Assembly: GCA_043826475.1 (NCBI GenBank)
Contig: JBDRQG010000231.1
Coordinates: 1 to 39,702, forward strand
Reading direction: 5' to 3'
DNA: 39,702 bases
Source: a bacterium
Lineage (GTDB): Bacteria; Zixibacteria; MSB-5A5; GN15; FEB-12
Shown here in pieces: positions 970 through 22,954 of the stretch; within the stretch, counting starts at the first letter, position 1, and each line of letters begins with the position of its first letter. The notes beneath the pieces were generated by a model. That model ran no database searches and was not told the DNA's origin. It worked only from the letters and a program-made list of their open reading frames with translations. Made by a program: the position numbers and the translations under genes.

Positions 970-1076
970 ATTTAACCTTAATCTTCATCGAGCAAGAATT
1001 ATTGAAAAATGAAAAAAATAAATAATCATAAGGTAATGATTTTAATAAATTATAAGATTATTAGGAGGCCTAAATA

Positions 1077-1763
1077 ATGACAGATGATCGGATGATGGTA
1101 AGAGTTCAAATCATGGGTGAGTCTTATGAGGTACCGGAAGGCTCGACAATTATTATGGCGATGGAATACGCCGGTTACCAATTAAAAAGAGGAATAGGCT
1201 GTCGTGAAGGATTTTGTGGAGCATGTGCTACCCTTTATCGGGAAAAGAATGATTACAAAATCAAAGGTGGATTAGCCTGCCAAACGGTTGTTACCGATGG
1301 AATGGTGATCGCTCAGATTCCTTTTGTACCGGCAGAGAAACCGGTGTACGATATAAATGAATTAACGCCAGATATAAATACAATAAAGGCGATTTTCCCG
1401 ACTGTATTCCGCTGCGTTGCCTGTAATACTTGCACAAAAGCGTGTCCGCAAGATATAGAAGTAATGGATTATATACAGGCTTTAAAACGAGGCAATATTG
1501 AGCGAGCCGCTGATCTATCATTTGATTGTATTCGTTGTGGCTTATGCGCATTGAGATGCCCTGCTGAGATTGTGCAATATAACGCTGCCATTCTTGCACA
1601 AAGATTGTATGGGAAGTATCTTTCCAAGAAAAATCCCCAGTTGGATAAGCGGGTTAAAGAAATTGAAGATGGAAAATATACTGAGGAAATAAATGAATTG
1701 ATGGACATGGACCGGGAAAAGTTGACAAAAACATACTATAACAGAGAAATAAAAATATCCTAA
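1077..1763 (+). CDS. SdhB/FrdB-like iron-sulfur subunit (2Fe-2S plus two 4Fe-4S motifs)
   Basis: 228 aa. CREGFCGAC..C (Cx4Cx2C..C), then CVACNTCTKACP and CIRCGLCALRCP. AGGAGG RBS upstream. Immediately precedes the flavoprotein gene. Confidence 0.75.
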   Translation: MTDDRMMVRVQIMGESYEVPEGSTIIMAMEYAGYQLKRGIGCREGFCGACATLYREKNDYKIKGGLACQTVVTDGMVIAQIPFVPAEKPVYDINELTPDINTIKAIFPTVFRCVACNTCTKACPQDIEVMDYIQALKRGNIERAADLSFDCIRCGLCALRCPAEIVQYNAAILAQRLYGKYLSKKNPQLDKRVKEIEDGKYTEEINELMDMDREKLTKTYYNREIKIS

Positions 1764-1799
1764 GGAATTAAAATGAAGATAAAGAAATAAGGAGCAAAA

Positions 1800-3473: not shown

Positions 3474-3484
3474 AAGGAGGTTAT

Positions 3485-4465: not shown

Positions 4466-4727
4466 ATCCATGGGAATGATTGAATGGATAAATGAATGGA
4501 AAGTAAATTTGTACGATTTATTGCAAAGAATAGAAATCAAATTGAGAAAATTAAAAGTAATGAGCAATGGGGTTCAGGTTATTGAAATAAAGAAATAATT
4601 GCAGAATACGGAAAAAAGAATCATGATTAGTATCCCATTCAAACATTCAACTTAAAAAAATGTAGATATACTATATGAAAATATCTGCTACTGCTAATAA
4701 AACTTTAGTCAAGAAGAGGAGGCAAAA

Positions 4728-6191: not shown

Positions 6192-6272
6192 TGTTTATTA
6201 CCTATTCCTTTTATAATTTTGTTGTGAGTTATTTCTATATTTTATGTAATTATAAAATATTAAGGAGGAAAA

Positions 6273-7700: not shown

Positions 7701-7717
7701 TTGGTAGGAAGAAAATA

Positions 7718-8275
7718 ATGGAATTGAATAATTTGAAAAAATGGCAGGATAAACTGCATGTTTGTATTCGATGTGGTTATTGCTTCGAGCATTGCCACCT
7801 TTTCAAGATTACAGGCTGGGAATCTGATTCTCCCCGTGGTAAACTTATTATGCTTCATGGGTTACTTCAGGGTGATATAAAGCCTTCGGATTACCTCGCT
7901 GAAAAGATGTTTGAATGTTATATGTGTAAACGATGCGAGGCTTCCTGTTCTGCCAAAGTCGAAGTCACCGAAGTGTTCATGGATGCAAGAGTAGATTTTG
8001 CTGAAGCGGGTTATGATGTTGTAGGCACAACTTCAGGAACGAATGACGATTTGTGCTGTCGATGTCAAGTATGTATTACAGTTTGTAAACACGAGGCGAG
8101 ATCACTGGACAAAGAAAATAAAAAAATAGTTATCGACAAAGTTAAATGTCAGAGTTGCGGCGGTTGTGTTGCCGCATGTCCTTCTGGAGCTGCGTATAGT
8201 CAAGAAGGTTTTAGACTTACTCCGAACGAGTTACGTGAACAAGTTGTAAATTATCTTGCAGGAGGTGTCGAATGA
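7718..8275 (+). CDS. Poly-ferredoxin Fe-S protein: GlcF/HdrD-type N-terminal half without CCG domains, plus a 2x[4Fe-4S] ferredoxin half
   Basis: 185 aa. CIRCGYCFEHC...DSPRGK...CYMCKRCEASC, then CCRCQVCITVC and CQSCGGCVAACP. Confidence 0.7.
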   Translation: MELNNLKKWQDKLHVCIRCGYCFEHCHLFKITGWESDSPRGKLIMLHGLLQGDIKPSDYLAEKMFECYMCKRCEASCSAKVEVTEVFMDARVDFAEAGYDVVGTTSGTNDDLCCRCQVCITVCKHEARSLDKENKKIVIDKVKCQSCGGCVAACPSGAAYSQEGFRLTPNELREQVVNYLAGGVE

Positions 8276-8670
8276 ATCCGAAAACAATTATTTTCTCATG
8301 TAATTGGTCATCATATCCGGGACTGCAACTTTCTGAAAATACGCTCGAATCAGTTCCGGAAGACTACAAATTAATAATTAATATGTGCTCCGGCAGAATA
8401 TCACCGGAATTGATAATAGATGCGTTCAAAAATGGAGCCTGGGGAGTGATGATTGCGAGTTGTCCTACGGACAAATGCGAACACGATGGAAATTACAAAA
8501 CACGAAGAAGAGTATTGCTTTTAAAAAAGACTTTAGAACAATTTGGCATTGATGCGAATAGAATAATATTGGAGTGGATTGATAAAGATGAGTCTGCTAA
8601 ATTAAAAAAGGCAATTGATCAATTTGTTACTGAAATCAATAAATTGGGTCCCATTAATTTTTACGATTAG
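8272..8670 (+). CDS. mvhD: Second MvhD-like protein (variant Cys pattern)
   Basis: 132 aa. ATGA overlap with the upstream Fe-S gene. Aligns along its length with the 107-514 product (MCSGR, ASCPTDKCEHDGNYK, LEWID), but has CNWS instead of CKWC. Confidence 0.8.
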   Translation: MNPKTIIFSCNWSSYPGLQLSENTLESVPEDYKLIINMCSGRISPELIIDAFKNGAWGVMIASCPTDKCEHDGNYKTRRRVLLLKKTLEQFGIDANRIILEWIDKDESAKLKKAIDQFVTEINKLGPINFYD

Positions 8671-8866: not shown

Positions 8867-10798
8867 ATGCTTACAAAAATCAAACTCCGGTTAAAGTTAA
8901 TTCTGAGTTTTTTATCGGTTATTATTATCGTTGGTGTTACATCTACTTTAGTAGGTGTGCATTTGATTGCCGATAGAATAGTGAAACAAGCTCAGGAGAA
9001 GGTTGAATTAGACCTCAATTCAGCAAGAGAAGTATACAATGATAAAATCAGAGATGTTAGTACTTCTATACGTTTGACTGCTCCTCGGTTCTTTTTAAAA
9101 GATGCTGTCTTAAGGAATGACATAGCGAGATTGAAAAAAGAGTTAAGAAGGATAAGAGAAAGGGAATCATTAGATATACTTAATCTAACTGATAAAGATG
9201 GAAAAGTCATTGTTAGAGCTAGAAATCCTGTAATTTATGGAGATGATCAATCAGATGATGAACTTGTTATAGAAGCAATTAGTAAAAAAGAAGTGGTAGC
9301 CTCAACACTAATCATCCCAAGGGATGAATTATTGAAAGAGGGAGAGGATCTGGCCAAGCAAGCATACATAAAGCTTATCCAAACTCCCAAAGCCAAGCCG
9401 ATATCAGGGAGTGAAGAAACCTCAGGAATGATGATAATAGCAGCAGCCCCAATTTTGGATTACCATGGAAACCTAATCGGTATCTTATATGGGGGGAACC
9501 TGCTTAATAGAAATTATGAGATTGTTGATAAAATAAAAGATATAGTTTATAGAGGAGAAACGTATAAGGGAAAAGACATTGGCACTGCTACAATATTTCA
9601 GGGTGATTTACGCATTTCAACCAATGTAGAGAGAAAGGATGGGACAAGAGCTATAGGTACGCGAGTATCCGAAGAAGTGAACAACCAAGTTTTAGTAAAG
9701 GGTATGCCATGGTTTGACAGGGCATTTGTCGTTAATAATTGGTATATAACGGCGTACGAACCGATAAGAAACATCAAAGATGAAGTAATTGGCATTTTGT
9801 ATGTTGGAATACTTGAAGAGAAGTTCGTAGATATGAAAAGACAAACTATGTTGACATTTTTGGGTATAACATTTGCCGGAATTGTCATCGCTTTTGCTAT
9901 TTCGTGTCTTCTTGGAAATAGTATAACAAAGCCAATTCGGTTACTTGTTTCTGCTTCTAATAAATTTGCAAAAGGAGACCTGGACCATAGAGTTGAATAT
10001 AGGAATAAAGATGAGATTGGAGAATTGGAAACAGCATTTAATTATATGTTAGATTCAATAAAGGAGAGAGATGAGAGATTAAAGGAATATACTAAGCAGG
10101 AAATAATGAAGTCTGAAAGATTAGCTATGGTGGGGCAATTAGCCGCAGGTGTTGCCCATGAAATCAATAACCCTCTTGGAAGCATTTTGATATATAGTCA
10201 TCTTTTGTTAGAGGATTTGGAAAAAGAAGATCCCAGGAGAGAAAATCTTGAGAAAATAGTAAATCAAGCCACGCGTTGTAAGAAGATTGTAAAAGGATTA
10301 CTGGATTTTTCTCATCAAACTGAACCTGAGATAAAACCCTCTGATATAAATACGATAGTTACAGAGGTTTTAGCTCTTGTTGAAAGACAGGAAATGTTTC
10401 ATAATATAAAAGTAATAAAAAAATTATTACCAGACCTGCCTACTATTTTGCTTGATAAGAATCAGATACAGCAGGTACTTATGAATATTATTCTTAATGC
10501 TGCTGAGGCTATGGATGGACAGGGTAAGTTGACAGTTGAAACTTCCTCTGATGAAGAATATGCAAGAATAAAATTTACTGATACAGGATGTGGAATTTCA
10601 GAAGAGAATATGAAAAAGCTATTTCAACCATTTTTTAGTACTAAAGAGACAGGTCATGGAACAGGGCTCGGGCTATCAATAAGCTATGGAATTATCAGAA
10701 AGCATAATGGAAAGATAAATGTAAGCAGCGAAATTGGAGAGGGAAGCACTTTCACTATAGTTTTACCCATAAGAGAGAAGAACGACCCCAAAACATGA
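8867..10798 (+). CDS. Sensor histidine kinase: TM, extracytoplasmic Cache-like domain, TM, HAMP, HisKA, HATPase
   Basis: 643 aa. Hydrophobic segments near residues 10-35 and 327-350. H-box AAGVAHEINNPLG, N-box NIILNAAEAM, G-boxes DTGCGI and GTGLGLSIS. Confidence 0.85.
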   Translation: MLTKIKLRLKLILSFLSVIIIVGVTSTLVGVHLIADRIVKQAQEKVELDLNSAREVYNDKIRDVSTSIRLTAPRFFLKDAVLRNDIARLKKELRRIRERESLDILNLTDKDGKVIVRARNPVIYGDDQSDDELVIEAISKKEVVASTLIIPRDELLKEGEDLAKQAYIKLIQTPKAKPISGSEETSGMMIIAAAPILDYHGNLIGILYGGNLLNRNYEIVDKIKDIVYRGETYKGKDIGTATIFQGDLRISTNVERKDGTRAIGTRVSEEVNNQVLVKGMPWFDRAFVVNNWYITAYEPIRNIKDEVIGILYVGILEEKFVDMKRQTMLTFLGITFAGIVIAFAISCLLGNSITKPIRLLVSASNKFAKGDLDHRVEYRNKDEIGELETAFNYMLDSIKERDERLKEYTKQEIMKSERLAMVGQLAAGVAHEINNPLGSILIYSHLLLEDLEKEDPRRENLEKIVNQATRCKKIVKGLLDFSHQTEPEIKPSDINTIVTEVLALVERQEMFHNIKVIKKLLPDLPTILLDKNQIQQVLMNIILNAAEAMDGQGKLTVETSSDEEYARIKFTDTGCGISEENMKKLFQPFFSTKETGHGTGLGLSISYGIIRKHNGKINVSSEIGEGSTFTIVLPIREKNDPKT

Positions 10799-12126
10799 AA
10801 ATATTAGTTATTGATGATGAAGAATATACACGTGATTCCTGCCGCCAGATACTCTCAGGAAATAGATATCGTGTGACAGAAGCTAAGGATGGGTACGAAG
10901 GGCTTGATCTAATAAAAAAGGAATCTTTCGACACTGTAATCCTTGATTTGAAGATGCCTGGTCTGAGTGGAATGGATGTATTAAAGAGGATAAAAGAGAA
11001 TAATCCAGAAACTATCGTGATCGTTATTACGGGCTATGCTTCGATCGATTCGGCAGTGGCAGCTATGAAAAGCGGTGCCTATGATTTCCTTCCCAAACCA
11101 TTCACTCCAGACGAGCTTCGTGTGGTTGTCAAACGAGCATTAGAAAAAAGAAAATTGTTGATGGATAACTTATATCTACGACAGGAACTTAAGTCAAGTA
11201 CTGAATTAGATATGATTATTGGTCACAGTAAAGCTATACGCAAAATTCATGATCTGGTGCGGAAAGTAGGACCAACCGGTAGCACAGTTTTAATCAGCGG
11301 CGAGAGCGGTACAGGAAAAGAATTAGTATCCAGAGCCATACACAAACACAGTGCTCGCAGTAACAAGCCGTTTGTCACTGTCGATTGTAGTACTCTGGTC
11401 GAAAACCTTTTTGAGAGCGAGCTCTTTGGTCATGTGAAAGGTTCCTTTACCGGAGCAAATGCTACAAAGCATGGCCGCTTAGAACTGGCAAATGGCGGTA
11501 CGGTTTTCCTTGATGAAATCAGCAATATCGGTATCAGTTTACAAGCAAAACTACTACGATCTATCCAAGAAAGGGAGATCACCAAAGTCGGTAGTACTCA
11601 GGCTATCAAAATTGATGTCAGAATTATTGCTGCTACAAATAAAAATCTCCAGAAAGAAGTCAAAGAAGGGACATTCCGAGAGGATCTTTTCTATCGGTTG
11701 AGTGTAGTACCTATCCATTTACCCCCTTTGCGTGAACGAAAAGATGACATTCCTTTGTTATCTAATTACTTTATGAACAAATACAACAAAAAGAGAAGGA
11801 AATCCATTAAAGGCATTTCCGAACGTGCAATGAAGGCTCTCGTCAATTACGATTGGCCGGGAAACGTACGAGAACTGGAGAATGCCATTGAAAGAGCCGT
11901 GGTACTAACGGAAAATGAATTCATAGAGCCTTCCGATCTTTACTACTACGGCTTAAGTGCGGAAATTGAAGCCATTAAAGATCGGACCCTCGTTGATGTC
12001 GAAAAACAACACATCGAAAAAACTCTGAAAATGTTTAGTGGTCACAAAATAAAAACATCTAAAGCGTTAGGGATAGACCGGAAGACGCTACGGGCAAAAA
12101 TGAAAAAATACGGTATAGGCTCTTAA
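10795..12126 (+). CDS. Sigma-54-dependent response regulator (NtrC family: REC, AAA+, Fis-type HTH)
   Basis: 443 aa. ATGA overlap with the kinase gene. REC with DLKMPG. Walker A GESGTGKE, ESELFGH, GSFTGA (GAFTGA-loop variant), C-terminal HTH ALGIDRKTLRAKMKKYGI. Confidence 0.9.
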   Translation: MKILVIDDEEYTRDSCRQILSGNRYRVTEAKDGYEGLDLIKKESFDTVILDLKMPGLSGMDVLKRIKENNPETIVIVITGYASIDSAVAAMKSGAYDFLPKPFTPDELRVVVKRALEKRKLLMDNLYLRQELKSSTELDMIIGHSKAIRKIHDLVRKVGPTGSTVLISGESGTGKELVSRAIHKHSARSNKPFVTVDCSTLVENLFESELFGHVKGSFTGANATKHGRLELANGGTVFLDEISNIGISLQAKLLRSIQEREITKVGSTQAIKIDVRIIAATNKNLQKEVKEGTFREDLFYRLSVVPIHLPPLRERKDDIPLLSNYFMNKYNKKRRKSIKGISERAMKALVNYDWPGNVRELENAIERAVVLTENEFIEPSDLYYYGLSAEIEAIKDRTLVDVEKQHIEKTLKMFSGHKIKTSKALGIDRKTLRAKMKKYGIGS

Positions 12127-12475
12127 CCTGAAAATTTCATTAGCCACTAAGTAACCAAGACACAAAATATTAATAAAATTGAAAATTAATGATAATATTT
12201 AAAACCAATAAATAGAAACTGAGTTATTAATAATAATTTCTCTTATATTAATATTTCTTCGTGACTTATCCCGTAATGGATTCCTGTCTTTGTGACAGAA
12301 AATTCTGGTTAACAATAAATAGTAAGATGGGGCATAACTCCCCATAGATGGGATAAAATCCCCCGTTTTCCATGCCATAAGCGAATAACAACGACCTGAA
12401 TATAAATTTATAATCTCACTTAAAATTAACCTTTTAGGCATTATCCTGAGTGGTTTTTTTATTTAGGCAAAATTA

Positions 12476-12491
12476 TGGCATAAAGTTTGTG
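12476..12491 (+). promoter_or_regulatory. Candidate sigma-54 (-24/-12) promoter, TGGCAT-N5-TTGT
   Basis: TGGCATAAAGTTTGTG matches TGGCAC-N5-TTGC in GG..G spacing but lacks the -12 C. It lies between the sigma-54 activator gene and the tandem-REC / FHL-like genes. Confidence 0.35.
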
Positions 12492-12506
12492 AAATCTAAA
12501 AAAGAG

Positions 12507-13295
12507 ATGATGGATAAAAGTAAAAAAATTCTTGTTATTGATCCCGATGCCGGAATAAGAGAGGAGTATCTCTCTCTTTTCAATGGTGAAGATTATGAGT
12601 TGGAAATAAGTGCAGGGTTCACCAAAGCTATGGAAAAAATTAAGAATGTTCATTTTGATTGCATCATTATAGATACTCATTTGCCTGAGATCTTGGTTTA
12701 TGATGCGGTTCCTATTATAAAGACGATTTACCCGGAAGTTGAAGTAATTGTAACCACTGCCCAAAACAGCAGAGAATTGGAAACCAAGGTGCGAGAACAG
12801 GACATTTTCTATTATTATATAAAATCATTTGAAATGGAAGAGCTAAGGTTAGCGGTTAGTGATATATTCAAAAAATTGGGGAAAATAAAGGAGGTAAAAA
12901 AGATGAAACAACCACCATTGATTCTAATTGTTGATAATGACCCGGATTTTGTGAAAGCAACACGAACTATCTTGAAGACAAAGTCATATAAAGTGGAAAT
13001 CGCATATGACAGAAATGAAGCCATGGAAAAGATCAAACATCTCAAACCCGATTTGATCCTTCTGGATATTATGATGAAGGAAATAGACGATGGATTTACT
13101 ATATGTTATGATCTTAAGCATGATCCTGAGTTAAAAAATATTCCTGTATTTGCTATCTCCGGCATAACTGAAAAGACTGGGTTTAAGTTCTCTCCAAAAA
13201 CCGATGGTGAATATTTTGCGGCAGACGACTATGTAGAAAAGCCTATTGAAGCTGATGATTTGCTGAAAAGGATTGAGGCACTTCTTACAAAATGA
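12507..13295 (+). CDS. Tandem-receiver (REC-REC) response regulator with no output domain
   Basis: The ORF track starts at GTG 12450. I prefer ATG 12507 (MMDKSKKILVID) because the receiver fold begins there. Two REC domains carry acceptor Asp contexts IIIDTHLP and LLDIMM. Confidence 0.8.
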   Translation: MMDKSKKILVIDPDAGIREEYLSLFNGEDYELEISAGFTKAMEKIKNVHFDCIIIDTHLPEILVYDAVPIIKTIYPEVEVIVTTAQNSRELETKVREQDIFYYYIKSFEMEELRLAVSDIFKKLGKIKEVKKMKQPPLILIVDNDPDFVKATRTILKTKSYKVEIAYDRNEAMEKIKHLKPDLILLDIMMKEIDDGFTICYDLKHDPELKNIPVFAISGITEKTGFKFSPKTDGEYFAADDYVEKPIEADDLLKRIEALLTK

Positions 13296-13371: not shown

Positions 13372-15474
13372 ATGATAGATGTTTTGACTACATGTCCGTT
13401 TTGCGGCTGTGGCTGCGGGATGTATCTTCAAGTAGAAAGAGGAGCCGTCACAGGAATAACACCTTCTCAGAAACATCCCATTTCTCGAGGAAGATTGTGC
13501 GCCCGTGGCTGGCACTCCTATGAGTTTATTCAACACCCTGACCGATTGAAAAAACCACTAATACGACAAAACACAAAAAATGAAGGAGTAGAAAGGAAAG
13601 CTGTTCGAAACTCTCTACCCAATTTTAGGGAAGCTGAATGGGATGAGGTATTGGATCTTGTATCTAATAAGCTAACCGAAATTAAATCTAAATATGGAAG
13701 TGAATCTCTGAGTGTTATCTCTTCTGCAAAATGCACTAATGAAGATAATTATGTTCTAATGAAATTCGCCCGTGCCGTATTGAAAACCAATAATGTTGAT
13801 AATGGTGGTAACATCTACGATGCGGCTACTTTGCCTGGCTTAAGATCGGCTTTCAGTATAGGAGCAGGAACCAATTCTCTTAGTGAACTGGAACAAGCAA
13901 AAGTTATTTTTGTTATCGGTGCTGATCCTGCCCAAGTTCATCCCCAAGTGAGTGCCCGCATAATAAATGCCGTTACTAACGGTGCCAAACTCATTCTCAT
14001 TGATCATAGGAAAACGCACCTTTCTAAGTTCGCCCATCTATACCTCCAGCTTAAGCCAGGAACCTATGTTGGTTTCATTAATGGATTAATAAACACGATC
14101 TTCAGTGAAAGAATGATAGATATAGAAAAAGTTAAACAACTCACTTCCAACTTACCGGCTTTGAAGTGGAAAGTTAAAAAATACACACCAAATTATGTTG
14201 AAAAACTTTCAGGTGTTTCCCAAAAAGATATACATAAGGCTGCTGAAATTTACACACAAACAAAAAAGTCAATGATCGTTTACTCAACCGGACTCACCCA
14301 ACAAATTGCCGGGGTAGATAATGTCAAGGCGCTTGCCAATTTAGTAATCTTGACTCAGCATCTTGGAGAGCCTTCAAGTGGTATTCTTCCATTACTGGAA
14401 CAGAATAATGCCCAAGGGGTGGCTGATGTTGGAGGAATACCAGATTATTATTCAGGTTATCAATCTATTAAAGACAGTCAAGCAAAGAAAAAATTTGAAA
14501 AATCCTGGAACGTAAAATTACCGATAAATTCAGGTCTCTCTGTACTTGAAATGCTAACTCCGGGGAGACTTAAAGGGATGATTATCGTTGGTGAAAATCC
14601 ATTAATCACTGCTCCAGATGTTAAGAACGTGGAGCAAACCTTGAGGGATTTAGAGTTTCTCGTTGTCCAGGATATTTTTTTAACGGAGACTGCTGAATGT
14701 GCTGACGTAGTTCTACCCGCAGCTTGTTTTGCAGAGAAAGAGGGTACATTTACCAATACTGAAAGAAGAGTTCAACGAATCAGGAAAGCCGTAGATCCAC
14801 CAGGCGAAAGTAAACCCGACTGGATGATCATTACCCATTTGGCAAAGCATATGGGATATGCATTGAATTACTCCTCTCCAAAAGAAATTATGGAAGAAAT
14901 AGCTGCTTTAACTCCGATTTATGCCGGTATCAACTATGAGAGATTAGATGAAGAGTGGGGACTGCAGTGGCCTTGTCCGGATGTAAAGCATTCAGGGACT
15001 TCGATTTTACATTTAGGCTATTTTGATCGTCCCAAGGCTTATTTTTCATTAGTTGAACAGAATGGCTTGGAAAAGCCGCATTTCACACCGACAGAAGATA
15101 TTCCGTTATTAGAGCCGCCCGGAGAGGAGTATCCATTTACACTTACCACCGGGAGTTTGTATTATCAATGGCACAGCGGTACTATGACTCGGCGTTCGGC
15201 TACTCTCAGCCGTGAATTTCCCGAAGTATTCGCGGCAATAAATCCAAAGGATGCCGAACAACTTAAGATCCGAAATGGTGAACGTATTAGAGTTTTATCT
15301 CATCGTGGTGAGATCGAAACTGCTGCTCTGTTAACCGATATGGTTCAAGAAAAAACCATATTTATACCGCTTCACTACAAAGAAACTGCCACTAAGATGT
15401 TGATCAATCCAAGTGTTTTTGATAAAGCGAAAACTATTGAATTACTATGTGCTGTAAGAGTTGAAAAGCTATGA
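13372..15474 (+). CDS. FdhH-like molybdopterin (bis-MGD) oxidoreductase subunit lacking the canonical Sec/Cys active site
   Basis: 700 aa. N-terminal CPFCGCGCG...RLCARG 4Fe-4S motif, and collinear similarity to formate dehydrogenase H through to the C-terminal domain. Active-site loop reads NNVDNGGNIYDAATLPG. Confidence 0.8.
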   Translation: MIDVLTTCPFCGCGCGMYLQVERGAVTGITPSQKHPISRGRLCARGWHSYEFIQHPDRLKKPLIRQNTKNEGVERKAVRNSLPNFREAEWDEVLDLVSNKLTEIKSKYGSESLSVISSAKCTNEDNYVLMKFARAVLKTNNVDNGGNIYDAATLPGLRSAFSIGAGTNSLSELEQAKVIFVIGADPAQVHPQVSARIINAVTNGAKLILIDHRKTHLSKFAHLYLQLKPGTYVGFINGLINTIFSERMIDIEKVKQLTSNLPALKWKVKKYTPNYVEKLSGVSQKDIHKAAEIYTQTKKSMIVYSTGLTQQIAGVDNVKALANLVILTQHLGEPSSGILPLLEQNNAQGVADVGGIPDYYSGYQSIKDSQAKKKFEKSWNVKLPINSGLSVLEMLTPGRLKGMIIVGENPLITAPDVKNVEQTLRDLEFLVVQDIFLTETAECADVVLPAACFAEKEGTFTNTERRVQRIRKAVDPPGESKPDWMIITHLAKHMGYALNYSSPKEIMEEIAALTPIYAGINYERLDEEWGLQWPCPDVKHSGTSILHLGYFDRPKAYFSLVEQNGLEKPHFTPTEDIPLLEPPGEEYPFTLTTGSLYYQWHSGTMTRRSATLSREFPEVFAAINPKDAEQLKIRNGERIRVLSHRGEIETAALLTDMVQEKTIFIPLHYKETATKMLINPSVFDKAKTIELLCAVRVEKL

Positions 15475-16580
15475 GAGCAAACAAAGAAAAGGAACTAAGG
15501 ATTCTAAAGAGAAAGAACCTTTTTACTCTGATGTCCAGATTTCTAGAGGATAGAGAAGTAATTGCACCGATTAAGGGTCACGGCGGTGAGGTAATATTTT
15601 ACCCGATCGAGACCATCGAAGACGTGGCATGGGATTGGACTTATGTCAATACCGTATTACCGCCGAAGAGATTCTTCCTTCCTCAGACTGAGGAGCTATT
15701 TCATTATAAAAACCAAAACAAGGGCTATGAAATTACCCCAATCTATAACGATAGAGTTCGAATGATCTTTGGAATACGTCCTTGCGATGTCAATGCCCTT
15801 CTTTTTTTGGACAAATTCTTCGGTGGAGGTCCCATTGGCCGGCGAGCACCCGTGGCTGAGCCAGGCATTCTTCAGGATCGCTACTATGCAACCCGAAGAG
15901 CAAATACCTTCATTATTGCTTTCGGCTGCCATCAACCTGGAGAAAACTGTTTCTGCATCTGTTGTGACAGCGGACCATTCCTCAAAGAGGGCTTCGATCT
16001 ACAATTAACGCAATTAGGAGGAGATGAATACATTGTGGAATTAGGTTCAGCCAGAGGACTTAAGATTTTCTACGGACACGAAGATTTATTCCGATCGGCT
16101 ACCAATGCAGAAGAGAAAAGGCTAACCGTGATCAAGGACAAAGCAACTCAACAGTTTGGGAATACACGTGCTTACATCAGTAAAGCCATTCAAAAGATCA
16201 CCCAAAATCAAGTCCCTGATGAACTCTGGGAAAATCTGAGCGATCGCTGTCAAGATTGCGGAGGCTGTTCCTATGTTTGTCCTACCTGCTGCTGTTACAA
16301 TGTTGTGGATGTGCCTACAAACGAAAACGAGGGTATCAGGACAAGAACCTGGGATAGTTGTGCTTTTGCAGGTTTTACAAAGCTTGCAGGTGGTGATAAC
16401 CCACGCTCCGAGAAGAAAGATAGGTTGAAAAGACGATTTTTTCATAAACTGTCTTATCATTATATAGAAAAAAACGGGAGACATGGATGCGTCGGTTGTG
16501 GAAGGTGCATTAATACCTGTTTTGCCAATATAAGTATGCCAGATATCGCCGATAAAATCAGAAAAGGGATAACGAGTTGA
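15471..16580 (+). CDS. AsrA / sulfhydrogenase-beta (HydB)-like poly-Fe-S protein
   Basis: 369 aa. ATGA overlap upstream. RPCDVNAL, CFCICC, CQDCGGCSYVCPTCCCYN, NPRSEKKDRLKRRFFHK, CVGCGRCINTC. Confidence 0.75.
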   Translation: MRANKEKELRILKRKNLFTLMSRFLEDREVIAPIKGHGGEVIFYPIETIEDVAWDWTYVNTVLPPKRFFLPQTEELFHYKNQNKGYEITPIYNDRVRMIFGIRPCDVNALLFLDKFFGGGPIGRRAPVAEPGILQDRYYATRRANTFIIAFGCHQPGENCFCICCDSGPFLKEGFDLQLTQLGGDEYIVELGSARGLKIFYGHEDLFRSATNAEEKRLTVIKDKATQQFGNTRAYISKAIQKITQNQVPDELWENLSDRCQDCGGCSYVCPTCCCYNVVDVPTNENEGIRTRTWDSCAFAGFTKLAGGDNPRSEKKDRLKRRFFHKLSYHYIEKNGRHGCVGCGRCINTCFANISMPDIADKIRKGITS

Positions 16581-17404
16581 AAGATATTTATCTTCCAGAT
16601 ATAGCTGTAATTGATGACATGACCGAAGAAACTGGGGACGTTACAACTTTCACTCTACGATTTAAGGATAAAAGATTGCAAGAAGAATTCGATTATAGAC
16701 CAGGTCAATTTGTTGAAGTCTCTGTTTTCGGAGTTGGTGAGATACCAATTTCCATTACCTCAACCCCATCAAGATCAGGATTCTTAGAGCTCAGTATTAA
16801 AAATGCAGGCTTGGTATCGGGTGCCCTTCACAAGCTTTCTAAAGGAGCAGAGGTCGGCGTTAGAGGACCTTTTGGAAACGGGTTCCCTTATGAAAAAGCT
16901 TTTGGGAAAAATCTACTCTTTGTGGGTGGTGGGGTAGGATTAGCTCCACTACGATCTTTAATCAATTTTGCTCTTGATAACCGTGATAGATTTGCAGACT
17001 TTTCCATACTTTATGGTTCCCGTACACCTGCGGATTTGGTTTTCCGCAAAGAACTTGAGCTTTTGGGAAAGCGTCCTGATGTGCGGACCTTTATTACTGT
17101 GGATCGTGGAGATGACCAATGGCAGGGTAACGTGGGTGTAGTGACAACCTTGTTCCCCAAAGCAGACATAACCAGCGAAGACACCCTGGCCTTTGTCTGT
17201 GGTCCCCCAGTTATGATCCCCTTCGTAATCCACGGTTTAATAAAGATCGGCTTCTCAGATGAAACAATCATCTCCACTTTGGAGAGGCACATGAAATGCG
17301 GAGTAGGTAAATGCGGTCATTGCTGCATCGGACACAAGTATGTATGTCAGGATGGGCCTGTATTCTCTTATAAAGAGATGAAGGAGATGGTAGAGAAAGC
17401 ATAG
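16577..17404 (+). CDS. AsrB / sulfhydrogenase-gamma (HydG) / PyrK-like FAD- and NAD(P)-binding 2Fe-2S flavoprotein
   Basis: 275 aa. TTG start overlaps the upstream stop. PGQFVEVSV, GPFGNGF, LLFVGGGVGLAPLRS, CGPPVM, C-terminal CGVGKCGHCCIG..YVCQDGPVF. Confidence 0.8.
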   Translation: MKDIYLPDIAVIDDMTEETGDVTTFTLRFKDKRLQEEFDYRPGQFVEVSVFGVGEIPISITSTPSRSGFLELSIKNAGLVSGALHKLSKGAEVGVRGPFGNGFPYEKAFGKNLLFVGGGVGLAPLRSLINFALDNRDRFADFSILYGSRTPADLVFRKELELLGKRPDVRTFITVDRGDDQWQGNVGVVTTLFPKADITSEDTLAFVCGPPVMIPFVIHGLIKIGFSDETIISTLERHMKCGVGKCGHCCIGHKYVCQDGPVFSYKEMKEMVEKA

Positions 17405-17448: not shown

Positions 17449-17883
17449 ATGTTGATAAGCAAAATGAAAGAAGTTTGGATATGCCTTAAAGCCGGAAGAG
17501 TCACCCTGCCTTACCCTTTCAAACCAGCAATACCTCCAGATGGATTTAGAGGAAAGCTTGAGATAGATAAGGAAAAATGTATAGGCTGTGCTGGATGCGC
17601 AAATGTGTGTACACCAAGGGCTATTATCGTTACCGATTTAAACGGTGACTGGAGGAAAATCGATTTCTATCTGGAACGGTGCACATATTGTGGTCGATGT
17701 GAAGAAGTTTGCCCTGAAAATGCGATTGTCATGACCAAGGAATTTGAGACAGCAACCAACTCCAAGGAAGATTTGCATATATCTGTTGAGCTTTATATGG
17801 GTTCATGTCAGCGCTGTGGCCGCTGTTTCACTCCAGTACACCCTCTGGACAAAATGATGGTTACAGGATTTAGGGAGAATTGA
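17449..17883 (+). CDS. HycF / NuoI-like 2x[4Fe-4S] ferredoxin subunit
   Basis: 144 aa. CIGCAGCANVCTP and CTYCGRCEEVCPENAI, plus a further CQRCGRC. Confidence 0.8.
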   Translation: MLISKMKEVWICLKAGRVTLPYPFKPAIPPDGFRGKLEIDKEKCIGCAGCANVCTPRAIIVTDLNGDWRKIDFYLERCTYCGRCEEVCPENAIVMTKEFETATNSKEDLHISVELYMGSCQRCGRCFTPVHPLDKMMVTGFREN

Positions 17884-19572
17884 ATGTTGACAGGGAAACA
17901 GTTACTAGAAAAGCTGAAAAGGAAATTTGAAAACCAGATTATCTTATCTGAAGAAAATACGCCGGGGAAAATATTTATTACTATTCAACCAAAATCTTTG
18001 ACCTTTTTGGCAGATTATCTTTTAAATAAATTAGGATTTCGTTTTGTGATTAATATAGGCACCGATGAAATTCCACTGACCGGAGACTATGTGATCTCTT
18101 ATATATTTTCACTGGATAACGAAAAACTGTTTGTGTGCATCCATATACATATTGATCCCAACATCCCTTTTATAGACTCCATCACTCCAATAATCCCGGG
18201 TGCGAATTGGGCAGAGCGGGAAGTTCGTGACATGATCGGGGTTCATCCACGGAATCACCCGGATCCCCGTCGATTGGTACTTGCTGATGATTGGCCCGAT
18301 GATGTGTACCCTTTATGTAGGGACTTCCCTTACGACTACAAACCTCCTGCCCGACCTGAAAACAGGGTGAAATTAGCACCACCTCCAAGTGGTGCTAAGG
18401 TTATACCCATTGGGCCATTTTTCCCGGTTTTAGAAGAGCCCGCATACTTTAAGGTCTTTGTAGAGGGCGAGAAGATCATCGGCTGTGATTATAGGGGATT
18501 CTATAATCATAGGGGCATAGAAAAACTCGGAGAAAGTGTCTTAACCTATAACCAAATATGCTTTATGGCTGAACGCATTTGCGGTATTTGTGGATTTGTG
18601 CATTCATGCTGTTACTGTCAGGCTATTGAAGAAGCTGCAGACATAAAAGTGCCTCCCCGAGCCCAGTACATCCGCACTATTATGCTGGAGCTGGAAAGGA
18701 TAGCAAGTCACCTCTTATGGGTGGGAATAGCCGGACATATTATTGGATTTGACACTGTTCTGATGCATAGCTGGCGCATCCGGGAACCCGTAATGTGGTT
18801 GTGCGAACAGATTACCGGTAACAGAAAAACTTACGGTATGAACCTAATAGGAGGAGTAAGAAGAGATATTCCCATGGAATTACATCTAAAAGTTTATGAA
18901 ACAATCGATAAAATTGAGAAGGAATTAAAGGCTCTAGTGAATGCAATTCTTGGCGACACTTCTTTGCATGTCAGATTAAAAAAGGTAGGTGTACTAACAA
19001 AGGATGAGGCTTTAGATATGTGTGTGGTCGGTCCTGTTGCTAGAGCCTCAGGAGTGAATATCGACTCTCGTAGGGATCATCCCTATGCTGCTTACGACAA
19101 GCTGCAATTTAAAGTTCCAGTTAAGCAGGATGGGTGTTGTTGGTCTCGTACCTTAGTCCGATTAGAGGAATTATTTGAATCAGTAAAGATCATAAGACAA
19201 GCACTCAGAGAAATGCCTAAAGGAGAGATCATGGCTCACGTGGAAGAGATTCCACCTAATAAAGAAGCTATCTGTGTGGTAGAAGCCCCCCGGGGTGAGG
19301 TCGTACATTATGTATTAACAGGTACTGAGAATAGACCTTACCGCTGGAAAGTAAGAGCCCCAACCTACGCTAATCTTCAGGTTGTTCCAATAATCATTAA
19401 GAATGAACAAATAGCAGATGTCCTCATTGCAATCGGCAGCCTCGATCCTTGTTTCTCGTGTACAGAGCGAATGATCGTAGTGAAGAAAAAAACCGACAAG
19501 CAAACTTTAAATTGTCAGGATTTAATGAACCTGAGTAGAGAAAAAACAGTCAAAATAAAGAAAAATATTTAG
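17884..19572 (+). CDS. Group-4 [NiFe]-hydrogenase large subunit, HycE-like NuoC-NuoD fusion
   Basis: 562 aa. N-terminal NuoC-like ANWAEREVRDMIGV, then ERICGICGFVHSCCYC (L1) and DPCFSCTER (L2), followed by a 33-aa tail. Start abuts the upstream stop (TGAATG). Confidence 0.9.
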   Translation: MLTGKQLLEKLKRKFENQIILSEENTPGKIFITIQPKSLTFLADYLLNKLGFRFVINIGTDEIPLTGDYVISYIFSLDNEKLFVCIHIHIDPNIPFIDSITPIIPGANWAEREVRDMIGVHPRNHPDPRRLVLADDWPDDVYPLCRDFPYDYKPPARPENRVKLAPPPSGAKVIPIGPFFPVLEEPAYFKVFVEGEKIIGCDYRGFYNHRGIEKLGESVLTYNQICFMAERICGICGFVHSCCYCQAIEEAADIKVPPRAQYIRTIMLELERIASHLLWVGIAGHIIGFDTVLMHSWRIREPVMWLCEQITGNRKTYGMNLIGGVRRDIPMELHLKVYETIDKIEKELKALVNAILGDTSLHVRLKKVGVLTKDEALDMCVVGPVARASGVNIDSRRDHPYAAYDKLQFKVPVKQDGCCWSRTLVRLEELFESVKIIRQALREMPKGEIMAHVEEIPPNKEAICVVEAPRGEVVHYVLTGTENRPYRWKVRAPTYANLQVVPIIIKNEQIADVLIAIGSLDPCFSCTERMIVVKKKTDKQTLNCQDLMNLSREKTVKIKKNI

Positions 19573-19719: not shown

Positions 19720-20199
19720 ATGTTCAAGACTCTATTAAACAAATGCTTCAAGAAATCCATCTGGGTTTATCACACAAATACCGGAGCTTGTAACGGCTGT
19801 GACATCGAGGTAATTAATACGTTGACACCCTATTATGACGCTGAGAGATTCGGGATCAAATTAGTGGGAACCCCTCGGCACGCTGACGCACTATTAGTTT
19901 GCGGCCCCGTGACCCGACAAGTAGTTCCCGCCCTCAAATGTTTGTACGATTCTGTGCCCGATCCTAAGATGATAATTGCTATTGGATCCTGTGCCATTGG
20001 CGGAGGAATTTGGTACAATACTTACAATGTTCTAGGTGGTGTTGATAAAATACTTCCTGTGGATTATTTCATCCCCGGATGTCCTCCCCGCCCTGAAGCT
20101 ATTCTTTACGGTATTGCAGTGGCTCTGGGAGTGGTGAAGAAGAAAGTGTCTCCGGTAATCCTCAAAGAAGAAAGCCCCGAAAAATGGATGACATTTTAA
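19720..20199 (+). CDS. Group-4 [NiFe]-hydrogenase small subunit (NuoB/HycG/EchC-like)
   Basis: 159 aa. GACNGCDIE, GSCAIGGG and IPGCPPRPE supply the four Cys of the proximal 4Fe-4S cluster. Confidence 0.9.
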   Translation: MFKTLLNKCFKKSIWVYHTNTGACNGCDIEVINTLTPYYDAERFGIKLVGTPRHADALLVCGPVTRQVVPALKCLYDSVPDPKMIIAIGSCAIGGGIWYNTYNVLGGVDKILPVDYFIPGCPPRPEAILYGIAVALGVVKKKVSPVILKEESPEKWMTF

Positions 20200-21119
20200 G
20201 AGCCATATTCTATACAATTATCTTTCCAGGTTTAATTTTTACTAGTGTCCTTGGCCTTTTCTTCTGTTGGGTTGATAGAAAGATAGCCGCACGAATCCAA
20301 AGTAGAATAGGACCACCATGGTATCAGTGTTATGCCGATGTTCTCAAACTGATGGGCAAAACGATGATAATACCCAGAGGGAGCAGAAAAGCTGGTTTTT
20401 TATTGGCTCCTCTTTTAGGATTAGCCGGCGTCACTCTGGTATCGACCATAATCTGGAGAGTAAACATAAACCAGGAAGTAAGTTTTGTAGGTGACTTGAT
20501 TGTAGTGCTTTACTTATTGATTCTACCTTCTCTTGCTTTGATTATGGGTGGTTCTTCTTCGCGAAATCCTTTTGGAGCCATAGGTGCTAGCAGGGAAATG
20601 AAAATGATATTAGCATATGAACTGCCATTTCTCATTGCAATTATTACCGTTATATTGAAGGTCAAATCAATACTCTTAGGAGAGATTATCACATTTCAAT
20701 CCATTCAGGGAGTTTTAGTGGGAAATCCTTCGTGTGTAATTGCTTTTATCGTCTGTCTCCCTTGTATTCAGGCTAAACTCACCTACATACCTTTCGATAT
20801 TCCGGAGGCAGAAACAGAAATTATTGGGGGCACTCTGGCAGAATATTCCGGCGTCTCGCTTGCTATATTCAAATTAACCAATGCTATGATGTTATTTATC
20901 TTACCCTTCTTTTTGATTTCTCTTTTTTTCGGTGGAATTAATTTCAATATAAAAGGAATTCTAATTGTACTGGTTGAATATCTGGCAATTCTTCTTCTAA
21001 TAATATTAATCAAAACAACTCATCCTCGCCTCCGTATTGATCAGGCAATTAAGTTCTTCTGGTGGCTTGTGACTCCGTTTGCGGTTGTCGGGATGATTCT
21101 GGCACTGATAGGAGTGTAA
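20184..21119 (+). CDS. NuoH / HycD-like integral membrane subunit
   Basis: 311 aa, polytopic and hydrophobic. N-terminal WVDRKIAARIQSRIGPPW motif typical of NuoH/HycD. 16-nt overlap with the small-subunit gene. Confidence 0.85.
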   Translation: MDDILRAIFYTIIFPGLIFTSVLGLFFCWVDRKIAARIQSRIGPPWYQCYADVLKLMGKTMIIPRGSRKAGFLLAPLLGLAGVTLVSTIIWRVNINQEVSFVGDLIVVLYLLILPSLALIMGGSSSRNPFGAIGASREMKMILAYELPFLIAIITVILKVKSILLGEIITFQSIQGVLVGNPSCVIAFIVCLPCIQAKLTYIPFDIPEAETEIIGGTLAEYSGVSLAIFKLTNAMMLFILPFFLISLFFGGINFNIKGILIVLVEYLAILLLIILIKTTHPRLRIDQAIKFFWWLVTPFAVVGMILALIGV

Positions 21120-21121
21120 AA

Positions 21122-22954
21122 ATGAATTTGATTCTTCTCATTCCGATTATATTGCCAATAACTATAGGATTTATATGTCTGATTGTTCCTTGGCAGCGAA
21201 TCAGGGAGGTATTCACTTTTATTGGGATGCTACTGACCACTGCTGTGGCTTTGAAAATCCTACTTTTGAATGAACTCAGGTTGCAGATAGAGTGGATTAC
21301 CCTCTCTTCTATGCAAATAAATTTTGATCTTATCTCCTACCACTTTAGCGCCTTCATTCTCCTTGCTTGCTCGTTTTTCGGATTGTTAATCACAATCTAT
21401 TCTCTAAAACAGATGAAAGGCAAATATTATTTGAAAGAATATTACATCTATCTACTTTGGACGGTGGGGATTGCTAATGGTTCTATCCTTTCTAACAATC
21501 TGGTTATTCTACTGATTTTTTGGGGTATTATGCCGGTATTGCTATATCTTCTTATAGATATTAGTGGGTCTGGTTCTGGAAAAGCGGCATTAAAGAGTAT
21601 TATCATCGTAGGAGGTTCAGATTTTCTCATGTTATTGGGTGTGGTTATTATCTGGCACCTTAAAGGCACCATAACAATGAACGAGATAATAATCCCCATA
21701 GAAGATGGATTGTCTACAGCAGCTTTTATTCTTCTGACAATTGGAGCCGTTGCTAAGGCAGGTGCTATGCCTTTTCATAGCTGGATTCCGGACGCAGCTG
21801 AAGTTGCCCACGTACCAGTTATGGCTTTTCTCCCAGCAGCACTTGATAAGCTACTTGGAATTTACCTCTTGGTTAGGATCGCTTTAGACCTCTTTATAAT
21901 GGATTATAGTATGAAGGTTCTCTTGATGAGCATCGGTGCAGTCACCATAATTGCCGCTGTGATGATGGCCCTGGTTCAAAAAGATTTGAAAAAGCTGCTC
22001 TCTTATCATGCCGTATCGCAAGTCGGGTATATGGTTTTGGGGATCGGCACCGGAACACTAATAGGGATTGCTGGCGGGTTATTCCACATGTTGAATAACG
22101 TCATTTACAAATGTTGTCTCTTTCTGTGTTGCGGGGCGGTTGAACACAGAATAAAAACAACTAACTTAGAAAGCTTAGGCGGTTTAGCCAGGACGATGCC
22201 GGTGACTTTCATTACCTGTACTATTGCTGCCCTCTCCATATCCGGGATTCCCCCCTTAAATGGATTTGTCTCCAAATGGATGGTGTATCAAGGGACGATC
22301 GATGTAGGTGGTTCAATATGGCCCATTTTTTTAATCGCTGCAATGTTCGGCAGTGCCTTAACTCTGGCCTCTTTTGTAAAAGTTCTTCACTCGGTCTTCT
22401 TGGGTGAAAAGCCAAAAGAGATCATGGAACCGAAGGAAGTGGAATTCTCGATGAAAGTTCCTTTGGTAATCCTTGCTCTTTTCTGTGTGTTTTTTGGGAT
22501 CTTTGCTCAATTCCCCTTAAAATATTTTATTGGACCGGTGCTGGAAGTAAGATTCAGTGGAATTGGGGAAGCTATTAACCTTAATGGGATGTGGAGTCCT
22601 ACATTAGCCACTACTCTTCTTGCTTTCAGCCTGGTATGCGGGATAATCTTCTATCGAATAGGAAACATTAAGGCTTTGAAAGAGGGGGATATTTTCGTGG
22701 GTGGAGAGCCTATCGATTGTGAGGAGCTAAGAATATCAGGAATTCATTTTTACGATACTATTGAATCTACTGGCTTTTTAAAGTACCTGTATAAAAAAGC
22801 AAAGGCACGAGCATTTGATCCTTATGAATGGGGAAAAACCATCTCTTTTTCTCTTTACTCGGGTTTAAGTAAGATACACAGTGGTATTTTACCAATTTAT
22901 TTACTCTGGATTATCGTCGGATTTGCAGTTTTATTGTTCATATTGATGAAATGA
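21122..22954 (+). CDS. NuoL/M/N / HycC-like antiporter-type membrane subunit
   Basis: The ORF track starts at 21062, inside the previous gene. ATG 21122 (MNLILLIPIIL) begins 3 nt after that gene's stop, giving 610 aa. Motifs include AKAGAMPFHSWIPDA and LLSYHAVSQVGYM. Confidence 0.85.
   Translation: MNLILLIPIILPITIGFICLIVPWQRIREVFTFIGMLLTTAVALKILLLNELRLQIEWITLSSMQINFDLISYHFSAFILLACSFFGLLITIYSLKQMKGKYYLKEYYIYLLWTVGIANGSILSNNLVILLIFWGIMPVLLYLLIDISGSGSGKAALKSIIIVGGSDFLMLLGVVIIWHLKGTITMNEIIIPIEDGLSTAAFILLTIGAVAKAGAMPFHSWIPDAAEVAHVPVMAFLPAALDKLLGIYLLVRIALDLFIMDYSMKVLLMSIGAVTIIAAVMMALVQKDLKKLLSYHAVSQVGYMVLGIGTGTLIGIAGGLFHMLNNVIYKCCLFLCCGAVEHRIKTTNLESLGGLARTMPVTFITCTIAALSISGIPPLNGFVSKWMVYQGTIDVGGSIWPIFLIAAMFGSALTLASFVKVLHSVFLGEKPKEIMEPKEVEFSMKVPLVILALFCVFFGIFAQFPLKYFIGPVLEVRFSGIGEAINLNGMWSPTLATTLLAFSLVCGIIFYRIGNIKALKEGDIFVGGEPIDCEELRISGIHFYDTIESTGFLKYLYKKAKARAFDPYEWGKTISFSLYSGLSKIHSGILPIYLLWIIVGFAVLLFILMK

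Follow-up and report, generated by a model that had tools for sequence, protein, structure and literature searches.

A 39,702-nucleotide stretch of DNA from a bacterium of the Zixibacteria lineage (contig JBDRQG010000231.1 of assembly GCA_043826475.1; hereafter the window) encodes, at positions 13372..15474 of the + strand, a full-length cytoplasmic homologue of the formate dehydrogenase (FDH) subunits FdhH and FdhA that is 700 residues long and is without the formate-oxidizing site. We refer to this gene as fdhX and to its product as FdhX. The replacements at the active site are fixed in an entire clade, and fdhX is invariably the first gene of an operon whose other products, judged by their sequences, form a membrane-bound [NiFe] hydrogenase of the formate hydrogenlyase (FHL) type, with an NAD(P)H-type flavoprotein module and without HycB. 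What appears to be new is a mildly degenerate FdhH homologue fixed on a hydrogenase that is predicted to be of FHL type and fed by NAD(P)H, together with natural intermediates. We favor, with modest confidence, a reading in which the complex would be an NAD(P)(H)-linked, ion-translocating hydrogenase and FdhX would be a non-catalytic Fe-S scaffold, much like the FDH-like domain of NuoG.

FdhX contains the Pfam domains Molybdop_Fe4S4, Molybdopterin, and Molydop_binding, and scores 708.3 bits against TIGR01591, the NCBIfam model for formate dehydrogenase alpha, which passes the curated cutoff of 666.25. Its top HMMER matches among solved structures are all true FDHs, namely FdhF of the hydrogen-dependent CO2 reductase HDCR (7qv7_S, 1.7e-181) and then an F420-dependent FDH (9t1s_L, 6.7e-179), with further matches to 7bkb_D and to Escherichia coli FdhH (1aa6, 5.6e-130). 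The alignment to 7qv7_S places NNVDNGGNIYDAATLPGL opposite NNVDHCARLCHAPTVAGL and PLLEQNNAQG opposite PLRGQNNVQG. We also aligned FdhX to the E. coli fdhF reference sequence taken from NC_000913, to which it is 36.7% identical across 673 columns. The four cysteines of the FS0 [4Fe-4S] cluster are all kept (C8/C11/C15/C42 in E. coli FdhF, C8/C11/C15/C43 in FdhX). The motif, C8-x2-C11-x3-C15...C43, lies at 13393..13506 together with Arg45, which takes the place of the relay Lys44, and its four cysteines and Arg45 are invariant in the clade. The residues U140, H141, R333, and G334 of E. coli FdhH correspond to Y149, D150, L342, and E343. Tyr149-Asp150 is encoded by TAC GAT at 13816..13821, where the clade has Tyr in 34 of 35 sequences (one has Thr) and Asp in 35 of 35, while Leu342-Glu343 lies at 14395..14400, where position 342 varies between L, Q, G, and V and Glu343 is invariant.

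The DNA at 13786-13845, which contains GAT AAT GGT GGT AAC ATC TAC GAT GCG GCT, and the alignment both reveal neither an in-frame TGA nor a Cys codon in the active-site loop. The clade-invariant cysteines of FdhX are C8, C11, C15, C43, C121, C535, and C693; since all of them are also conserved in true FDHs, no substitute Cys ligand has arisen. FdhX lacks the Sec/Cys ligand of Mo/W, the catalytic His141 and Arg333, and the relay Lys44. In E. coli FdhH the Sec140Cys change cripples activity, and in the FDH of R. capsulatus changes at the His and Arg equivalents are each crippling. By its sequence, then, FdhX is a descendant of the catalytic subunit of a cytoplasmic Mo/W formate dehydrogenase and is predicted to have lost the ability to oxidize formate. 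Much of this had been proposed in a first-pass annotation that relied on a hand alignment to E. coli FdhH. Both the FdhH sequence used there and the alignment prove correct against the real fdhF, including the intact 4Fe-4S motif with Lys changed to Arg. The DNA and the HMMER alignment place Tyr149 and Asp150 exactly where it had put them, in a loop free of Cys and TGA, and the alignments to the solved structures and to fdhF agree on Leu342 for Arg333. We looked in these alignments for a Cys or Sec at the Mo-ligand position, the result that would have overturned that annotation, and found Tyr149 there instead.

The substitutions are not peculiar to one organism. A search of 5.8 billion proteins returned 34 clusters of FdhX relatives at 59-97% identity, followed by a sharp fall to 51% or less. 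All 34 clusters at or above 59% identity carry DNG[GA]x[LIF]-[YT]-D, L-[LQGV]-E-QNN, and LCARG. Among the matches listed, 86 of 86 neighbors at or below 51% identity carry DHCARLCH (that is, Cys-His) and LCxKG, and they also have LRGQNN apart from an Arg-to-Ile variant (P0064, P0103, and P0115) and a few changes of single residues in that motif. When a profile of the clade was run exhaustively with HMMER against 1.84 billion 50%-identity representatives, the entire clade came back as one representative at 1325 bits, with the next match at 778. Counted at positions that are at least 90% conserved among the neighboring true FDHs, the other replacements fixed in the clade are H144N, C145G, S152A, D232Y, M306T, H311Q, S413T, R595S, T602S, E622A, and N675K, while the formerly invariant R147, GSGAM motif, Q310, R213, and position 342 have become variable. 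The clade spans two organism groups, the other subclade being labeled Planctomycetota/Phycisphaerae. The pattern lies far beyond chance, and on this comparison of sequences the substitutions are a fixed trait of the lineage. A sequencing artefact or decaying pseudogene was also considered and has a virtually negligible chance of being correct: the open reading frame is intact at 700 residues, an independent Logan contig encodes an identical protein, the 34 clusters, from ENA, JGI, NCBI, and Logan, share the same residues and lengths, and between loci FdhX varies about as much as its partner subunits do (62-82% and 63-88% identity, respectively).

The genes that follow fdhX, all on the + strand, are in the order beta-gamma-hycF-hycE-hycG-hycD-hycC. 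The first, at 15471..16580, has a start that overlaps the fdhX stop and encodes a 369-residue poly-[4Fe-4S] subunit of the sulfhydrogenase beta/AsrA type with a Pfam Fer4_22 domain. It matches the NCBIfam models ShyB (5.4e-56), HydB, and AsrA, in each case under the equivalog cutoff, and its top solved-structure match is the beta subunit of Pyrococcus furiosus sulfhydrogenase I (9nez_B, 1.4e-40). Its stop is in turn overlapped by the start of the gene at 16577..17404, which encodes a 275-residue FAD, NAD(P)H, and [2Fe-2S] subunit of the sulfhydrogenase gamma/AsrB type (Pfam FAD_binding_6, NAD_binding_1, and DHODB_Fe-S_bind; top solved-structure match 9nez_C, sulfhydrogenase I gamma, 2.7e-65). 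Next comes a HycF/HyfH/NuoI-like subunit with two [4Fe-4S] clusters (17449..17883; 40% identity to E. coli HycF), which matches the NCBIfam models for hydrogenase 4 subunit H (1.5e-36) and the FHL iron-sulfur subunit (2.1e-34). The HycE-like [NiFe] large subunit at 17884..19572 is a NuoC-NuoD fusion (Pfam Complex1_30kDa, NiFeSe_Hases, and Complex1_49kDa) that contains the motifs CGICGFVH and DPCFSCTER and is extended by 33 residues at its C terminus, and E. coli HycE is its top solved-structure match (7z0s_E, 7.1e-127). The operon is completed by a HycG/NuoB-like small subunit (19720..20199; NCBIfam NuoB family, 1.6e-43; 52% identity to E. coli HycG), a HycD/NuoH-like membrane subunit (20184..21119; NCBIfam NuoH, 2.5e-56), and a HycC/NuoL-like antiporter-type membrane subunit (21062..22954), which matches the NCBIfam models NuoM, NuoL, hydrogenase 4 subunits B/D, and Mrp subunit D. 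The subunit set of a group 4 hydrogenase of the FHL/HycE type (a large subunit with the NiFe Cys motifs, HycG, HycF, HycD, and HycC) is accordingly complete, and the stretch from fdhX to hycC is, by homology, an operon for such an enzyme. The partner subunits look functional from their sequences, with the NiFe motifs present and FAD, NAD, and 2Fe-2S domains in gamma.

The clade loci fetched (L001-L007, L084-L086, and L089-L090) all have the same operon wherever their contigs extend to its genes; one of them, L001, is a complete Planctomycetota genome of 2.27 Mb. With E. coli HycB as the query, tblastn gave no match in the window or in any locus with beta and gamma genes, and a match only in locus L093. 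Pfam and NCBIfam scans of the 39.7 kb window found no genes for molybdenum cofactor (Moco) synthesis, and neither Moco nor FdhD-type genes appear there or in the flanks of three clade loci for which Pfam domains were listed.

Metagenome loci were retrieved through the HycE-like protein, and other representatives were looked up individually. Together they form what appears from the sequences to be a graded series. At one end is L093, whose HycE is 61% identical to that of the window and which has a Sec-FdhA (DHCARL*HAP, PLRGQDNV) and a HycB gene and no beta/gamma genes; on these grounds it is a true FHL. In P0103 (L137 10001-12043) Cys-His is kept and Arg333 is changed to Ile; the gene is flanked by gamma- and beta-like genes and precedes those for HycC, HycE, HycD, HycF, and HycG. 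The variant motif shared by P0103, P0064, and P0115 reads DNCVRLCH / LIGQ[NS]NMQG, and the P0103 operon adjoins a second pair of beta-like and gamma-like genes followed by [NiFe] small and large subunit genes, an arrangement that resembles a soluble sulfhydrogenase. P0238 has Tyr-Asp yet keeps Arg333 and Lys44, and genes for beta, gamma, HycI, HycE, and the remaining subunits come after it; P0150, with Tyr-Gln, has the same architecture. At the far end are ten loci (L096-L119) that have the same beta/gamma module and the hydrogenase, and in which the FdhX relics are 520-640 residues long and only 26-33% identical to FdhX. The FS0 cysteines survive in these relics and the Lys44 position is mostly Arg; most other motifs and pterin-contact residues are gone. 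The series would thus run from Sec-FdhA with HycB, through proteins with Cys-His kept and Arg lost and proteins with Tyr-Asp, to relics with only the Fe-S motif. In all cases seen, beta/gamma genes with a group 4 hydrogenase are paired with a non-canonical FdhX and HycB is paired with a canonical FdhA. A canonical FdhA followed by beta/gamma-like genes, without hydrogenase, occurs in L016, L025, and L028, and this FdhA-beta-gamma arrangement is a plausible ancestor module of the fdhX operon. Just 5' of one relic, at L104 3528-4034, lies a gene for a NuoE/HoxE-like thioredoxin-fold [2Fe-2S] protein.

In a neighbor-joining (NJ) tree of HycE proteins, the beta/gamma-linked enzymes, L093, and E. 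coli HycE form one group (bootstrap 99), within which a subgroup without E. coli HycE has a bootstrap of 67 and an unsupported internal order. In the NJ tree of FdhX, the degenerate FdhX proteins and E. coli NuoG together form the sister group of the clade (bootstrap 92). Since NuoG sits on a very long branch and bootstraps at its own nodes are 37-56, we make no claim that the two share a common descent. Of the 150 nearest 50%-identity representatives, half are without the canonical Cys-His-Arg-Lys set, and among the 76 non-canonical ones the residue at the ligand position is Tyr in 22. The NJ grouping of these Tyr-type representatives has negligible support (2-20 of 50) and does not separate one Tyr origin from several. 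Some of the representatives between P0135 and P0238 have an N-terminal extension of ~215 residues before the FDH-like part. Another relative, P0187 (L141 7572-9686), is FdhA-like with Cys changed to Tyr, Arg changed to Cys, and His kept, and adjoins genes for a CooS-type (Prismane) CO dehydrogenase and CooF-like ferredoxins.

The distribution of constraint along FdhX differs from that in true FDHs. We compared column entropies normalized to each group's own mean, the mean pairwise identity being 70% in the clade and 64% in the canonical set. The relative entropy of the FS0 domain (residues 1-60) is 0.39 in the clade versus 1.01 in true FDHs, a 2.6-fold gain in conservation when measured against the protein mean. 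The opposite holds for the Sec/His loop (residues 141-170; 0.93 versus 0.37) and the Arg loop (residues 336-356; 0.96 versus 0.27). Lower values in the clade recur in segments 588-612 (0.17 versus 0.84) and 613-660 (0.68 versus 1.46). The catalytic loops are no longer under special constraint, and constraint has increased on the Fe-S domain and on part of domain IV, as would be expected of surfaces for docking and electron transfer. At ~15037-15087 (FdhX residues ~556-572) there is a conserved, clade-specific insertion, LVEQxGxEKEHFT, that is not found in canonical FDHs. It may be a new interface element; the confidence of the structural model is low at residues 555-562.

The cofactor pocket was examined by mapping the positions that contact the Mo-bis(molybdopterin guanine dinucleotide) of E. 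coli NapA onto the alignment, using a contact list that we take to be that of the UniProt entry and whose residue letters agree with the real NapA sequence. About half of the contact equivalents are kept and invariant in the clade (K120, N409, Q433, D434, K456, D483, T593, G594, W600, H601, G183, G230, T231, and QNN). The rest are replaced (K45R, C145G, C149Y, D232Y, M306T, R595S, and N675K, with the C-terminal Lys deleted) or relaxed (Q310 and R213). In E. coli NuoG most contact positions are lost; the Lys44 position is Arg, the ligand and Cys136 positions are Gly, and the Met297 position is Thr. Many clearly Cys-less relatives keep the DPR, GTD, QD, K, and D motifs as well, which makes the contact positions ambiguous as evidence on cofactor binding. 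For the fold, we used an AlphaFold2 model built from a 92-sequence alignment, with a predicted local distance difference test score (pLDDT) of 91.9; a model from 27 clade sequences (pLDDT 60) was not used. The model superposes on E. coli FdhH 1fdi with a template modeling (TM) score of 0.93 and a root-mean-square deviation (rmsd) of 1.9 Å, and on holo FDH structures with TM scores of 0.93-0.95 and an rmsd of ~2 Å. In a structural search with the model, true FDHs rank first and no NuoG chain is among the top 50. Alignments and superposition together agree with the first-pass view that the three residues considered essential for formate oxidation have been replaced while the fold and Fe-S site are kept.

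In the mechanism that we propose, the HycB ferredoxin and the formate input of FHL would be replaced by an NAD(P)H:Fe-S module of the sulfhydrogenase beta/gamma type, with beta standing in for HycB. Electrons would pass in either direction between NAD(P)H, the FAD and [2Fe-2S] cluster of gamma, the [4Fe-4S] clusters of beta, HycF, HycG, and the [NiFe] site of HycE, where H+ and H2 would be interconverted, and HycD and HycC would couple this redox reaction to ion translocation. FdhX, derived from the FdhA-beta-gamma module, would carry a [4Fe-4S] cluster and dock or stabilize the beta/gamma module on the hydrogenase arm. The potentials of NAD(P)H (~-320 mV) and H+/H2 (~-414 mV) imply that H2 evolution would need a low H2 pressure or input from an ion gradient; the reverse reaction, in the direction of H2 oxidation, could pump ions. 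Formate, by contrast, cannot be the substrate of the window complex as predicted here, because its FdhF homologue is without the Sec/Cys, His, Arg, and Lys44.

Several observations weigh against a purely structural role for FdhX. The contact equivalents K120, N409, Q433, K456, D483, T593, G594, and H601 are invariant in the FdhX clade and lost in the degenerate relatives and NuoG. Other pocket residues are fixed as well, namely Tyr149 (34/35), Asp150, Glu343, Gln344-Asn345-Asn346, Tyr232, Thr306, Gln311, and Lys675, and as far as the sequences tell, the pocket is remodeled rather than simply decayed. By the superposition on holo FDHs the whole four-domain fold is retained, and conservation of segment 588-612 is five times that in true FDHs. 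Moreover, an FS0 cluster without a pterin would be an electron dead end. Much of this would be explained if FdhX instead bound a Mo/W-bis-pterin ligated through oxygen, by Asp150 or Tyr149, and catalyzed a reaction other than formate oxidation, so that the complex became a hub linking a substrate X, NAD(P)H, and H2. We regard this as unlikely, albeit deserving serious weight. In addition to the full fold, it would account for the invariance of Tyr149, Asp150, Glu343, QNN, many pterin and dinucleotide contacts, and G183/G230/G407/G594, set against their decay in degenerate relatives and NuoG, and it fits with Tyr at the ligand position in the 22 representatives counted above and with two operons of the same kind in which P0238 combines Tyr-Asp with Arg333 and Lys44 and P0103 keeps Cys-His. 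It fits less well with the contacts that are lost or relaxed, with the systematic removal of His, Cys, and Arg from the pocket, with the ordinary conservation of both catalytic loops as wholes, and with the lack of Moco and FdhD-type genes in the window and in the flanks listed. The first-pass annotation had suggested Asp150 as the Mo ligand; this residue is indeed invariant, but it lies one position past the ligand position, which is occupied by Tyr149. We know of no case of tyrosinate or aspartate ligation of Mo/W in the FdhH/Nap branch. The fuller version, in which the pocket of Tyr149, Asp150, and Glu343 would hold such a cofactor at the center of a three-way ion-translocating hub and the Tyr-type proteins would constitute a new catalytic subfamily, is more doubtful still. 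The Fe-S scaffold is better supported than ligation by Asp, because of the operon context, the shift of constraint to the Fe-S domain, and the truncated sister versions.

The oxygen-rich, acidic character of the new pocket, in which Tyr, Asp, Glu, Gln, Thr, and Ser are conserved, could alternatively point to a non-redox role in which FdhX binds a ligand, for example by sensing a small molecule that gates electron flow or assembly. A two-component and sigma-54 control system is conserved along with the operon, which would suit such a role, but the strongest constraint is on the Fe-S domain, as for electron transfer or docking, and translational coupling to beta/gamma suggests a stoichiometric structural subunit; we consider a regulatory function improbable. 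That FdhX is still a formate dehydrogenase and the operon an ordinary formate hydrogenlyase is what database names imply, since it scores 708 bits against the 666 of TIGR01591 and the clade members P0014 and P0021 are named 'formate dehydrogenase subunit alpha' by their sources. With all of the ligand Sec/Cys, His141, Arg333, and Lys44 replaced, the anion-binding pocket now acidic, HycB absent, and no special conservation left in the catalytic loops, this is highly improbable.

Comparison with known systems helps to place the predicted complex. It resembles E. coli FHL (FdhF-HycBCDEFG; PDB 7Z0S/7Z0T, PMC9474812) in its HycE/F/G/D/C homologues, in its FdhF-type subunit of 700 residues with one [4Fe-4S] cluster, in the C-terminal extension of the large subunit, and in that HycI is encoded in relatives of the window operon, but it has sulfhydrogenase beta/gamma-type subunits instead of HycB. 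With the C-terminal domain of NuoG/Nqo3 (NDUFS1), FdhX shares the loss of the Mo ligand and the retention of a molybdopterin-oxidoreductase fold in a complex I-type assembly beside an NAD(P)H-oxidizing module; a link between FdhF and NDUFS1 is discussed in PMC9474812. Like E. coli NuoG, FdhX has Arg, Gly, and Thr at the positions of Lys44, Cys136, and Met297, although the ligand position is Gly in NuoG and Tyr in FdhX. Unlike NuoG, it starts at the FS0 motif, without fused N-terminal 2Fe-2S/4Fe-4S domains, has a partner flavoprotein of the sulfhydrogenase gamma type rather than NuoEF, and is ~50% identical to true FDHs with many pterin-contact residues kept, so that its loss of contacts is only partial. 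The first-pass annotation had described an Fe-S-only scaffold as the same evolutionary step that NuoG took: the scaffold is the better supported of its two suggestions, and the shared step is best treated as an analogy, given these differences in domains and partners and the weak NJ support for the placement of NuoG. Relatives of molybdoenzymes that have lost their ligand or cofactor and are kept as scaffolds are a known kind, with QrcB and ActB as further examples besides NuoG.

The beta and gamma subunits share FAD, NAD(P), [2Fe-2S], and Fer4_22 domains with the soluble sulfhydrogenase I of P. furiosus (PDB 9NEZ). In the window, however, they score far under the NCBIfam equivalog cutoffs, and the module is joined to a membrane group 4 hydrogenase and an FDH-like protein rather than to a group 3b hydrogenase. 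As in Asp-ligated Mo enzymes of the NarG type, FdhX has an Asp adjoining the ligand position, but Asp150 aligns with His141, the FS0 motif and the whole sequence are of the FdhH type, and FdhX scores 41 bits against the narG HMM (cutoff 1084), which places it outside the NarG type. The HydDB database lists hydrogenase subgroup 4f as 'formate-coupled (putative), undetermined role'. In the literature we found only one account of an FdhX-type subunit or complex, a note on Saganbacteria RX5A that contains no analysis of active site, conservation, or function (Matheus Carnevali et al. 2019, PMC6349859, Supplementary Note 5). It describes as 'enigmatic' a region for a group 4 [NiFe] hydrogenase that has asrA-like and asrB-like genes and a molybdopterin protein resembling FdhH and not identifiable as formate dehydrogenase. 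The architecture of this region is like that of the window and of loci L096-L119, L137, L138, and L140. Unlike the window, it has Mrp-type subunits and a cooF-like gene, and in the window clade the gene order is the simpler one of FHL and FdhX is far less diverged.

Upstream of fdhX, likewise on the + strand, lie three regulatory genes. A Cache/HAMP sensor histidine kinase (8867..10798; Pfam sCache_3_3, Cache_3-Cache_2, HAMP, HisKA, and HATPase_c) is syntenic, with 58-64% identity, wherever the contig of a clade locus extends to the kinase gene. It is followed by a sigma-54-dependent response regulator of REC-AAA+-HTH_8 architecture (10795..12126; Pfam Sigma54_activat, 8.7e-69), which is syntenic at 69-77% identity in clade loci whose contigs extend that far. 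Directly 5' of fdhX, at 12450..13295, is a gene for a protein with two receiver domains (Pfam Response_reg twice), syntenic at 60-71% identity, whose true start is probably the ATG near 12508. Good sigma-54 -24/-12 elements lie 5' of this gene in two Planctomycetota loci, at L001 7531 and L006 7153 (TGGCACGAACTTTGCT and TGGCACAAATGTTGCT), and the window has only a weak match at 12465-12480 (AGGCAAAATTATGGCA). A sigma-54 promoter scan of the whole window gave 24 matches against 14.4 ± 3.6 expected, which we do not take to be above chance.

Elsewhere in the window, positions 107-8670 hold a separate, second hydrogenase cluster with two FlpD/MvhD genes, a HycI-like protease, a 2Fe-2S/4Fe-4S protein, a FAD_binding_2 flavoprotein, [NiFe] small and large subunits, a GlcD/D-lactate-dehydrogenase-like FAD oxidase, and a 4Fe-4S protein. 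This cluster may encode a bifurcating system of the Mvh type with a link to a hydroxy-acid oxidase. The malic enzyme encoded at 25218-26963 has a response-regulator receiver domain at its N terminus, and a second malic enzyme is encoded at 37496-38950, with genes for acetate kinase, LarA, aconitase, citrate synthase, and isocitrate dehydrogenase nearby. The aconitase shares 79% identity with one named Ca. Marinimicrobia.

Because FdhX passes the TIGR01591 cutoff and carries the name of a formate dehydrogenase, metabolic reconstructions will wrongly infer formate oxidation or an FHL in the uncultured bacteria that have it. What the operon predicts instead is a membrane-bound, ion-translocating hydrogenase with NAD(P)H as partner, a system that has been in print only as 'enigmatic'. 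By analogy with NuoG, the graded series may be an independent replay of how a dead FDH becomes a permanent subunit beside the NADH-input module of complex I, and through this series the retention of a dead FDH-like domain becomes a testable question.

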